From a virus (taxonomy: Duplodnaviria; Heunggongvirae; Uroviricota; Caudoviricetes), in IMG/VR virus record IMGVR_UViG_2778261565_000010: a stretch of DNA of 4,350 nt, one strand, 5' to 3'. The position numbers were made by a program, and so were the translations under genes. This document shows positions 78 to 3,697 of this stretch, one piece after another. The notes below the pieces were generated by a model. The model saw nothing but the letters and a program-made list of their open reading frames with translations, had not been told where the DNA came from and did no database searches. Position 1 is the stretch's first letter, and each line of letters begins with the position of its first letter.

Positions 78-556
78 GAATCCACCCATAACACTGTTTT
101 TGGTTTTAACTGTTCCGCGTGCGCTCAGCCGCATTCACCACATCACAAAATTCACTTTAAAAAGGGCGGCAGAGCAGTCACGGAGTAAAACTGATACCGC
201 CAAACGTCACCAGAAAATTGATAACAGAGGGCGTTGCAGCGGGGTTGTCACTTAAGCGTATGGTCAACCTGACAACCCGGTGTCCTCAACGGGGAAGGAA
301 TAACCCCGCCATACTTACCGCCGCGCCATTTCGCGTAGTGCCACAACCGGAAGCGCACGGTCGACGAAAATTTAACGACAGGCTATCTATGAACCAGCTA
401 CCTCGCCGTGCGCTTTCGCGTTATGGTCTGACTTTTCATGGAAATATCCTTTCAGTAAACTGTCAGTGCCGGATGCTCACCCGTGTCCGGCGCACGCACT
501 CCACCTCACCCGTGGAGAACTCCTTAATTACCAACCTTAGCTTCGTTGGTTAGCTA

Positions 557-1396: not shown

Positions 1397-1804
1397 TTAC
1401 TGATGTTTGTTACGTTTGCGAGCTTCTAGTAGCTCGGTGAATAGGCGATTAAAATTCTCAACGCGGGCACGGAGTTCGCTGATTTGTGCTTGCTGCTCTG
1501 ATTTTGGAAGTGCGCGATACAATCGCAACATCTCCAACTCATCTTCCGATAAGTCTAAGGCGCTGTTGAGTGCTACTGGTGGATCTGGTGTTTTATCCTC
1601 GTCACCAAACAGTATCCAAGTTGGTGAACATTGCAATACCTCAGCCAGGCGATGCAAATTTTGCCCGCGCGGGGCTGTATGGTCGCTTTCCCATAGTGAA
1701 ATTGATGAGCCAGATACGCCAGCGGCTTTGCTTAAATCGTTTTGACTTAAACCAACCTGTTTGCGTCTTTCTCTAATTCGTTGACCTAAAGTTTTCTCGT
1801 TCAT
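1397..1804 (-). CDS. dicA: Prophage immunity repressor, DicA-like (XRE-family HTH N-terminal domain, C-terminal oligomerisation region), 135 aa
   Basis: 135-aa ORF with ATG at 1804..1802 and TAA at 1399..1397. HTH_XRE signature (GLSQNDLSKAAGVSGSSISLWE) and a LQCSPTWILFGDEDK motif I recall from E. coli DicA, same length as DicA. Divergent from a Cro-like gene. The symbol denotes the family; orthology is unverified. Confidence 0.9.
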   Translation of the reverse strand: MNEKTLGQRIRERRKQVGLSQNDLSKAAGVSGSSISLWESDHTAPRGQNLHRLAEVLQCSPTWILFGDEDKTPDPPVALNSALDLSEDELEMLRLYRALPKSEQQAQISELRARVENFNRLFTELLEARKRNKHQ

Positions 1805-1881: not shown

Positions 1882-2109
1882 ATGTTTAAATCAGACGTAA
1901 TTAATTTTTATGGGACGAAAGCCAAAGTAGCGAAAGCTGCTGGTGTTGATCCATCTGCTGTTTCTCAATGGGGGGAACTGGTTCCTGAAGGTCGCGCGAT
2001 GCGCCTGCAAGAGGCATCCGGCGGGGAACTTCAGTACGACCCCAAAGTTTATGACGAATATCGTAAGGCAAAGCGGGCGGGGCGGTTGAACAATGAAAAT
2101 CACCCCTGA
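1882..2109 (+). CDS. Cro-like small HTH regulator of the DicC/YdaS family (75 aa)
   Basis: ATG at 1882 preceded by GGAGGGG (1873-1879); the ORF track's TTG at 1855 is probably not the start. TGA at 2107-2109. Motif AKVAKAAGVDPSAVSQWGELVPEGRAMRLQEASGGEL matches the Cro-like YdaS/DicC pattern as I recall it; divergent from the repressor. Confidence 0.8.
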   Translation: MFKSDVINFYGTKAKVAKAAGVDPSAVSQWGELVPEGRAMRLQEASGGELQYDPKVYDEYRKAKRAGRLNNENHP

Positions 2110-2644
2110 ACAGGTTTGTGAGGCTCTGGATGCCTGGGTATGTCGACCAGGAATGACACAGGAGCAAGCGACGATATTAATCACGGAAGCATTCTGGGCT
2201 CTGAAAGAACGCCCGAACATCGATGTTCAACGCGTCACGTTTAATGATGGCGAGGTTGATCAACGGGCGCTGGGCGTTAACCGGGTGAAGATATTCGAAC
2301 GCTGGAAAGCTATCGACACCAGGGATAAGCGGAAAAAATTCACGGCGCTGATTCCGGCAATTATGGAGGCTATCCGAATTAGTGATTTCAGGTTGTATCG
2401 TGAGATCAGTGATGGAAAAAGCATTACGTACATGATCGCCGGATTAAACAAAGAATATGGCGATGTGGTGGAGTCCGGGCTGCTTTTTGCGGATCCAGCT
2501 GTTGTGGAACGTGAGACTGACGAGCTTATAGAAAAAGCTATTGCTTTCAAGCATGCGTATCGTCAGCAATATCAATATTACTTTGCAGATAAACAAATGT
2601 CTGCCAGGGGTTTGTATGAGTATCGATGCACTACGATGGGCTAA
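2093..2644 (+). CDS. YdaT-like protein (functional CII analogue in DicA/YdaS-type switches), 183 aa
   Basis: ATG at 2093 overlaps the Cro-like gene's 3' end by 17 nt (coupled translation likely); TAA at 2642-2644. Assignment rests mainly on synteny (the gene following the Cro-like gene) and size; I cannot confirm sequence homology from memory. Confidence 0.65.
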   Translation: MKITPEQVCEALDAWVCRPGMTQEQATILITEAFWALKERPNIDVQRVTFNDGEVDQRALGVNRVKIFERWKAIDTRDKRKKFTALIPAIMEAIRISDFRLYREISDGKSITYMIAGLNKEYGDVVESGLLFADPAVVERETDELIEKAIAFKHAYRQQYQYYFADKQMSARGLYEYRCTTMG

Positions 2645-3128
2645 AAAGGTGAAAACCGGCAGTTCATCCAGTAAGTCTGTATTGACCTGGCTTGCTGATA
2701 TGTGCGGTGCCGATTTGTGTGCATACCCGTCTGTATCTGCACTGGCAGAAGTAACGGAACTAAACAAAAAGACTGTGCAGGACAGCTTACGACACCTGAT
2801 GGAGATTGGGTTAATTGTTGATACCGGTGAGAGAAAAGGCAGAACAAAGCAAATTGTGGTGTACCGACTTATCGGTGTAGAAGAAAGTGTTGCCGAGCCT
2901 GAATACACCCAAAAACGGGAGTCTTTAAAGGTGGGTAAAATTGGTGCTGTTAATAAAAACAGTACCGAAAATGGTTATGTTTCAGCACAAAACAGACCCA
3001 AAAACGGAACTCTTAGCTGCATGGAAAATAACCAAAGACACCCAAATTTTCCATCAAAGACACCCAAAAACGGATCACGGAACCCAAAGGAACCCAAAGG
3101 AACCCAAAGATCTAAACCCCACACATAA
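2616..3128 (+). CDS. Replication initiator (O-like), N-terminal HTH DNA-binding part; frame ends at TAA 3126-3128 just after the tandem repeats, probably truncated by a frameshift
   Basis: ATG at 2616 with AGGGG 5 nt upstream (the ORF track starts at TTG 2541); overlaps the preceding gene by 29 nt. N-terminus (LRWAKKVKTGSSSSKSVLTWLADMCGADLCAYPSVSALAEVTELNKKTVQDSLRHLMEIGLI) resembles winged-HTH domains of phage replication initiators. Iteron-like repeats lie in its 3' third. Confidence 0.7.
   Translation: MSIDALRWAKKVKTGSSSSKSVLTWLADMCGADLCAYPSVSALAEVTELNKKTVQDSLRHLMEIGLIVDTGERKGRTKQIVVYRLIGVEESVAEPEYTQKRESLKVGKIGAVNKNSTENGYVSAQNRPKNGTLSCMENNQRHPNFPSKTPKNGSRNPKEPKGTQRSKPHT
2907..3108. repeat. 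Iteron-like array: three copies of ACCCAAAAACGG (2907-2918, 2996-3007, 3062-3073) plus ACCCAAA at 3040-3046 and in each of the three tandem units; candidate replication origin inside the initiator gene
   Basis: Seven ACCCAAA cores; the last five start at 3040, 3062, 3082, 3092 and 3102 (spacings 22, 20, 10, 10 bp, roughly helical-turn multiples). Analogous to ori-lambda iterons inside gene O. Confidence 0.5.
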
Positions 3129-3666
3129 CGCACGCGAGAGTGCTCCGACCAGTGAGCAGGAAGTTTTGTCGTTACAGGCAGCACCCCTTGTATTCCTGGA
3201 TGGCCTGAGCGAACCCATCGGAAAATTTCCGATGACCGATAGCTGGTATCCGTCACGGGATTTTCGACGACGGGCTGCGTTGTGGGGGATGGCTTTGCCG
3301 GAGACAGAATTTACACCTGCTGAACTTGCCGCCTTCCGGGACTACTGGGCAGCGGAGGGGAAAGTGTTTACGCAGATTCAGTGGGAGCAGAAATTCGCCC
3401 GTCACGTAAATCACGTCAGGGCGCAGGTTAAACCAGTCAGCAAGGGGGTAAACCATGCAGCAGCACCAGGTGGCACCGCATCACGGGCAGTTCAGGAAAT
3501 TCGGGCAGCACGTGAGCAGTGGGAACGTGAAAACGGATTTATCAGCGACGGAAACGGTCTGGAAGCTGTGGGAACTCATGGGGGAGGTTTATTCGAACCG
3601 CTGGACCCAGAAGAACGGGGCCGCACCTTCGAAGCTCTGGATTGCACAGATTGGCGCGATGACTGA
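2941..3666 (+). CDS. DnaT-like ssDNA-binding domain ORF; probably the C-terminal part of the replication initiator displaced into the +1 frame (ORF-track boundaries; no credible independent start)
   Basis: Frame open from 2941 to TGA 3664-3666. Segment GKFPMTDSWYPSRDFRRRAALWGMALPETEFTPAELAAFRDYWAAEGKVFTQIQWEQKFARH closely resembles the C-terminal domain of E. coli primosomal protein DnaT as I recall it. High G at codon position 1 through 3455-3666 supports coding in this frame. Confidence 0.6.
   Translation: MVLLIKTVPKMVMFQHKTDPKTELLAAWKITKDTQIFHQRHPKTDHGTQRNPKEPKDLNPTHNARESAPTSEQEVLSLQAAPLVFLDGLSEPIGKFPMTDSWYPSRDFRRRAALWGMALPETEFTPAELAAFRDYWAAEGKVFTQIQWEQKFARHVNHVRAQVKPVSKGVNHAAAPGGTASRAVQEIRAAREQWERENGFISDGNGLEAVGTHGGGLFEPLDPEERGRTFEALDCTDWRDD
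3079..3108. repeat. Perfect tandem repeat, 3 copies of the 10-bp unit GGAACCCAAA
   Basis: Directly visible: ggaacccaaa ggaacccaaa ggaacccaaa at 3079-3088, 3089-3098 and 3099-3108. The unit length is not a multiple of 3, so copy number sets the reading frame. Confidence 0.95.
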
Positions 3667-3697
3667 GCAGCAAATCTGACAGGTCTGCCGCCAGTGC

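Follow-up and report, generated by a model that had tools for sequence, protein, structure and literature searches.

A third copy of a 10-bp tandem repeat splits the replication initiator gene of a lambdoid Escherichia coli prophage

Organization of the locus

The window, i.e., the whole stretch of 4350 nt analyzed here, comprises the immunity and replication functions of a lambdoid E. coli prophage. It is found, base for base, at positions 73-4422 of contig NKOO01000109.1 (GCA_002459675.1, hereafter L010). The order of its main genes is CI-like repressor, Cro, YdaT-like, O-like initiator and P-like helicase loader (Table 1). The initiator gene is not continuous. The frame opened by ATG 2616 ends at a TAA (3126-3128) and yields a product of 170 aa, while the +1 frame is devoid of stop codons from 2941 to 3666. 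The frame that joins both domains of the initiator is therefore interrupted in the window, the C-terminal domain being encoded in the +1 frame.

Close to this stop codon, Tandem Repeats Finder (TRF) detects the single tandem array of the window (3079-3109, period 10, 3.1 copies, 100% matches), made of three perfect GGAACCCAAA units. When the window was shuffled 1000 times with its dinucleotides preserved, a perfect three-fold tandem with a unit of 7-15 nt never appeared. A preliminary description of this DNA had reported the three units as well as the two reading frames, and the TRF array and the ORF list agree with it on both counts.

Table 1. Features of the 4350-nt window.
Feature	Position	Strand	Evidence or remark
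IS1397 (IS3 family) end	1 to ~80		abuts DicF region
DicF antisense sRNA	164-215	-	Rfam RF00039, 76.7 bits vs gathering score 48, full length
ydfC-like ORF, 72 aa	557-775	-	between DicF and repressor gene
Zinc-ribbon-like ORF, 66 aa	868-1068	+	two CxxC pairs; only sub-threshold Pfam matches
CI-type repressor	1397-1804	-	
P22-Cro-type gene	1882-2109		
YdaT-family gene	2093-2644		
Truncated 5' initiator part, 170 aa	2616..3128	+	ORF list, PHROG, AF2, Foldseek, contig matches
Iteron-like direct repeats, core ACCCAAAAACGG	2902-2925, 2991-3014, 3033-3046, 3055-3080	+	repeat families D1, D2, D4
Three perfect tandem GGAACCCAAA units	3079..3108	+	TRF; single 10-nt gap vs DA33137; shuffles
C_CCA_AAG heptamer	3083..3089	+	zero-frame phase in unit 1
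Stranded 3' initiator part, +1 frame, stop TGA 3664-3666	3109..3666	+	Pfam, PDB, PGAP on relative
P-like helicase-loader gene, 153 codons	3659..4120	+	Pfam PF06992, phrog_109, PGAP in relatives
Nonsense TGA, codon 7 of P-like gene	3677..3679	+	alignment, codon survey of 13 loci, Rac-SA53

Domains of the two initiator halves

The 170-aa product assembles a winged-helix origin-binding domain (aa 1-90), a disordered linker encoded by the iterons, and an aberrant tail, GTQRSKPHT. Its N-terminal part matches phrog_1032, annotated "replication initiation protein" (2e-55), and the O-like phrogs 391, 678, 8540 and 345 (1e-8 to 1e-12). AlphaFold2, using 29 homologues, confidently predicts a winged helix over residues 1-90 (pLDDT ~90 or higher) and disorder over residues 92-170, and the nearest solved folds retrieved by Foldseek with the N-terminal model are all wHTH regulators. 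The N-terminal HTH proposed in the preliminary description is thus supported by profile, model and fold comparison, but not by Pfam at its own cutoff: HTH_36 reaches only 22.3 bits in the window sequence versus a cutoff of 25, although it is recorded in homologues.

The DnaT-like domain proposed for the +1 frame is firmly identified by a proper profile search. The DnaT-type ssDNA-binding domain PF17948 is found at nt 3226-3426 (E 3.2e-17, 62 bits versus a cutoff of 25), and the solved DnaT C-terminal domains 4ou6, 6aep and 9zbt match the same frame with E-values of ~1e-18 to 5e-18. The protein is not DnaT itself, judging from its score against NCBIfam NF002770, which describes the full-length E. 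coli DnaT: 94 bits versus a cutoff of 201, with only profile positions 82-166 aligned. The lambda O Pfam family does not match either half at E <=0.01.

In-frame ATGs occur at 2971, 2977 and 3232 in the DnaT frame, where gene callers report a 240-aa ORF. The earlier statement that this frame has no credible start of its own is therefore too strong, but it retains some value, as no obvious ribosome-binding site is found at any of the three ATGs and PGAP annotates the corresponding part of a relative as a pseudogene.

The intact gene

When one GGAACCCAAA unit is removed in silico, the two frames merge, without any other change, into an initiator of 346 aa that is identical to WP_000020541.1. The same protein is encoded as one CDS in E. 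coli DA33137, under the name "DnaT-like ssDNA-binding domain-containing protein". Alignment of the window to DA33137 displays one 10-nt gap, located in the repeat, and not a single difference in the 1021 non-repeat bases of the initiator gene. The normal allele hence possesses two copies of the unit, and the third copy is a frameshifting insertion. This alignment confirms the central proposal of the preliminary description, namely that the two domains are separated by three units and joined by two, and adjusts the size of the single initiator from about 340 to exactly 346 aa. As the gene is otherwise identical to the two-unit allele, the duplication is recent, as had been suggested.

Iterons, mosaic joint and conservation

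Within 2902-3080, inside the initiator gene, the core ACCCAAAAACGG recurs in three or four direct repeats. By analogy with ori-lambda, which lies in gene O, these iterons most likely represent the phage origin. The 10-bp units are located at the 3' end of the iteron array and have an ACCCAAA core in common with the iterons. In homologues from Kluyvera, Enterobacter and Scandinavium, the ACCCAAAAACGG-type motif is present 5-7 times, and the place of the perfect units is taken by two imperfect and unequal ones, GGAATCTACCAAA and GGAACCTAAA. The perfect form of the repeat, prone to slippage, is thus confined to the Escherichia lineage. Only four relatives (61-64% identity) were found among the GTDB species representatives; they were informative on conservation, not on copy-number statistics.

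The 10-bp units lie exactly at a mosaic joint (~3106-3125), similarity to ydaU of phage Rac-SA53 starting at ~3106. P0012 is a natural chimera in which an Enterobacter-type C-terminal DnaT module is attached right after …DLNPTH. To note, many homologues from draft genomes end at contig edges near ~3106-3125.

Copy number across genomes

The distribution of the alleles was established with a probe of 131 nt on 5426 complete E. coli genomes, 907 of which have the locus. Two units, recognized by exactly one 10-nt gap in the probe and a single CDS, are present in 871 of the 907 (~96%), one unit in 26 records and three units in one genome, 2013C-3264, these states leaving out 8 records in the 80-90% identity band and 1 further record at >=99%. 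PGAP annotates the three-unit locus of 2013C-3264 as an HTH protein followed by a "frameshifted" DnaT-like pseudogene. The one-unit allele is likewise out of frame. In the phage collection, all 11 full-length relatives (PPompW prophages) carry two units, and thus no intact three-unit relative producing two separate proteins is found among them.

The allele of the window is not confined to one contig. Its exact 170-aa product is encoded on at least 16 contigs (16-23), three of them of 125, 70 and 41 kb, which belong to independent assemblies of NCBI and Logan. The allele is also present in IMG/VR, where two contigs carry three units. These observations bear on the idea, also raised in the preliminary description, that the true genome has two units and that the third stems from mis-assembly or a sequencing error. 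The contig that contains the window is indeed only 4.4 kb long and ends at an IS element, and many draft homologues are "partial" at contig ends in this region. However, the length of a sequencing read far exceeds the 30 bp of the array, the identical allele recurs in independent assemblies, a complete PacBio-era genome has three units on another haplotype, and the one-unit allele of 2013C-3277 is found in two separate assemblies, CP027331 and CP074868. An artefact is therefore extremely improbable and can be effectively discarded.

The three-unit state has arisen more than once. The allele of 2013C-3264 and that of the window are distinguished by 11 sites, which lie to the left as well as to the right of the repeat, and each of the two has a two-unit twin whose initiator gene is otherwise identical. 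A third haplotype, P0060, displays 96% protein identity and the same frameshifted tail. Expansion from two to three units has consequently occurred on different haplotypes at least twice, and probably three times, which designates this site as a slippage hotspot in the iteron-encoded linker. Changes of the unit number are also seen between close relatives: the one-unit locus of 2013C-3277 (L003) and the three-unit locus of 2013C-3264 (L002) are separated by 1 substitution in the gene and 8 over 6.1 kb. In the one-unit allele (L003, 3049-3066), the zero frame ends one codon past the heptamer (…NPKI, then stop) and the -1 frame is the DnaT frame.

Other frameshifts affect the same linker, in P0002 and P0066 from E. 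coli and in the Klebsiella-type P0074, P0077 and P0079, those of the latter three sitting within A-run iterons. These independent events in other lineages point to the iteron-encoded linker as a general indel hotspot. Several of these five sequences share their out-of-frame tails (…NPHT or …QKI, each followed by a stop).

Such a polymorphism recalls an on/off switch, which the preliminary description had considered. The 10-bp tract would then be a selected hypermutable element, ON with two units and OFF with one or three, that toggles the replication competence of the prophage. The unit length, not a multiple of three, fits this proposal, as do the occurrence of one-, two- and three-unit alleles of which only the two-unit one is in frame, the independent expansion on at least two or three haplotypes, and the 8 substitutions over 6.1 kb that separate a three-unit from a one-unit locus. 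Yet the ON tract has only two units, for which the expected slippage is far below that of real contingency loci, and the very large majority of the genomes are in the two-unit state. A synthetic five-unit query retrieved no four- or five-unit allele from the complete E. coli genomes, and the exact four-unit pattern retrieved only two unrelated microsatellite-like contigs from the JGI metagenomes; an in-frame five-unit allele, or any allele of four or more units, is thus missing from both collections. The perfect repeat is not kept in the Kluyvera, Enterobacter and Scandinavium relatives, the OFF alleles are stably inherited and gather secondary lesions, and the other linker frameshifts listed above look like the product of a generic mutational hotspot. 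Taken as an evolved device, the switch is not supported by the non-conserved repeat, the lack of longer in-frame alleles and the inheritance of the OFF state, and is very unlikely.

The P-like gene and later lesions

The P-like gene overlaps the end of the initiator gene, its ATG (3659) and the initiator stop codon forming the sequence ATGACTGA. Its product matches PF06992 (6.1e-15, above cutoff) and phrog_109, "P-like helicase loader" (4e-54). The choice of ATG 3659 as the start is based on PGAP and the annotation of Rac-SA53, on the phrog_109 match, which extends from residue 1, and on the synonymous variation at codon 7.

This codon 7 is CGA, CGG or CGT in relatives, all coding for arginine, and is a TGA nonsense codon in the window. 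Among the three-unit alleles, it is CGA in L009, L011 and L013, and TGA in L004-L007, L010 and L012. The presence of both codons among three-unit alleles indicates that the duplication came first and that the nonsense codon appeared later, in a sub-lineage. The effect of the nonsense codon could be softened by ATG 3698 (codon 14), 6 codons downstream, from which a P-like product of 140 aa may be translated. To note, some annotators start the P-like gene at this ATG even in intact relatives. The 140-aa product was considered as a marker to count the nonsense alleles and was rejected: it is called on at least 1000 contigs, as many callers use ATG 3698 in intact genes.

A further lesion is found at the left end of the window. 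The IS1397 end is absent from the sister contigs L004-L007, which run on into dicB, and hence represents an extra insertion in the genome of the window.

Probable slippage and presumed loss of the initiator

The split gene is, with high probability, a recent and inherited frameshift pseudogene produced by repeat slippage in a decaying lambdoid prophage. The initiator carries an additional perfect repeat unit that shifts its frame and is identical to the two-unit allele in every other respect; the lesion is inherited, it has recurred, and it was followed by the TGA in the P-like gene. We infer the slippage mechanism from this pattern. Of the explanations put forward in the preliminary description, the slipped-strand inactivation in a decaying prophage is the one favored by the two-unit norm, the otherwise identical gene, and the later P nonsense codon and IS1397 insertion.

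The events may be pictured as follows. The intact initiator of 346 aa would possess an N-terminal winged helix, a disordered linker and a C-terminal DnaT-type domain adjoining the P-like loader, and the DNA encoding the linker would harbor the origin iterons followed, at its end, by two perfect 10-bp units. During replication, the nascent strand would slip back by one unit on these two direct repeats and thereby generate the third GGAACCCAAA. Since 10 is not a multiple of three, translation leaves the correct frame past Lys-164 and terminates nine codons further on. Only the origin-binding half would then be made, the DnaT-type half being left without its translation start, and the P-like gene would lose its translational coupling to the stop codon of the initiator. 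With the initiator split and the P coupling lost, the phage-directed initiation of replication is most likely dead, as judged from the reading frames. The prophage would then be left to decay, and the module to drift.

Some residual activity is conceivable. The internal ATG 3232, located right where the DnaT domain begins, could in principle yield the C-terminal domain. Full-length protein could also be produced in trace amounts by rare +1 or two successive -1 ribosomal shifts on CCCAAAG, a sequence formed by the unit and the next G.

These possibilities lead to the proposal that the three-unit allele is functional, either as separate half-proteins or through ribosomal frameshifting on CCCAAAG restoring the full-length initiator. 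The C_CCA_AAG heptamer, reported to be highly shift-prone in E. coli (PMC5009743), is in phase in unit 1; the CCCAAAG copies at 3093-3099 and 3103-3109 are in the other two phases. The DnaT frame would be reached by one +1 shift or by two successive -1 shifts (in units 1 and 3). A single -1 shift, in contrast, leads to a stop codon at 3113-3115, the DnaT frame being +1. Furthermore, the downstream RNA fold is unremarkable (z -1.2; 29 of 200 shuffles fold as well), and the heptamer is absent from the relatives of other genera. Programmed -1 frameshifting in the three-unit allele was accordingly rejected, for its wrong frame, ordinary RNA structure and non-conserved heptamer.

As for separate half-proteins, the coincidence of ATG 3232 with the start of the DnaT domain is in their favor. 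It may also be that the origin-binding fragment, kept together with the iterons, hinders incoming phages with the same replicon type, by analogy with the inhibition phenotype of ori-lambda (PMC3349717). However, two intact genes are not annotated in any relative, the downstream part being a pseudogene according to PGAP, and the later P nonsense codon suggests that selection on the module is relaxed. A functional three-unit allele is highly improbable.

The one-unit allele is a different case. With the DnaT domain in its -1 frame, a single -1 shift would restore a near-full-length initiator, and this allele may therefore be leaky, as far as its reading frames can tell. A composite reading has also been considered, in which a toggle based on DNA slippage acts together with ribosomal slippage on CCCAAAG and with a domesticated, phage-excluding three-unit form. 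In this composite scheme, a -1 shift on the two-unit allele would produce the origin-binding N-terminal fragment with the tail GTQRSKPHT, and the one-unit allele would leak full-length protein by a -1 shift. The fixed three-unit allele, if the scheme were true, would have the origin-binding fragment as its sole product and would keep out incoming phages that share its replicon type. The probability of such a combination is very low.

In the favored explanation, the frameshift pseudogene, the lesion is an ordinary case of recurrent prophage decay, without any new mechanism. It is mildly notable only for the repeated slippage at one site, which went both ways and affected several haplotypes.

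Comparison with known replication modules

The module is functionally of the lambda O/P type, with a C-terminal domain of the DnaT type as in Rac YdaU/YdaV. As in lambda, an N-terminal DNA-binding domain is followed by a linker, whose DNA here carries direct repeats as putative iterons, then by a C-terminal domain and a P-type gene (PF06992, phrog_109). The N-terminal domain and the iteron-like repeats are also swapped together, as one mosaic unit, with a joint at ~3106-3125. Several features depart from lambda: the lambda O Pfam family is not matched (E <=0.01), the C-terminal domain being of the DnaT type (PF17948); the P-like protein, with its 153 aa, is short, and its match to the Pfam P profile is limited to the C-terminal 100 positions; and the initiator gene is frameshifted in the window. 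From 3106 on, the C-terminal half and the P-like gene display ~90% DNA identity with YdaU/YdaV of Rac-SA53 ("primosomal protein I" and replication protein), and both loci have the same overlapping stop/start, ATGACTGA. Conversely, the N-terminal domain of Rac YdaU is unrelated to that of the window, and its gene contains neither GGAACCCAAA units nor ACCCAAAAACGG iterons. The literature search returned nothing specific on this lambdoid module with a DnaT-type domain and iterons.

The lesion itself resembles the frameshifted pseudogenes of defective lambdoid prophages, with an indel in a short direct repeat accompanied by a nonsense codon in P and an IS insertion, and RefSeq already marks the equivalent three-unit allele as "frameshifted". 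It differs from the usual prophage pseudogenes in that the site has been struck repeatedly, by gain and by loss of one unit, and on several haplotypes. It has in common with contingency loci a tandem repeat inside a gene, a unit not divisible by three and a copy-number polymorphism that switches the frame. Unlike them, it comprises only 2-3 units of 10 bp, the repeat is unconserved and the OFF alleles have become fixed in lineages.

Annotators should treat the HTH gene and the DnaT-like ORF as the halves of one broken initiator and not as two genes. A prophage that carries the split initiator can probably not replicate by itself. The repeated gain and loss of one unit at this site shows that inactivating slippage in phage initiators preferentially strikes their low-complexity, iteron-encoded linker. 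The split could serve as a simple marker for replication-dead lambdoid prophages in E. coli, including STEC lineages, and opens no new biological question of its own.

Sister prophages

The closest two-unit relative, the DA33137 prophage (L016, initiator at 40879-41929), possesses, besides its intact initiator, the full complement of structural genes, but its integrase is annotated as frameshifted. Sister prophage L004 was viewed over 20 kb (10 kb on either side). At 16290-17248, its DUF968 (ydfU-like) gene is apparently in two pieces of 49 and 177 aa, and this split corresponds to a mosaic joint where the similarity to DA33137 stops.
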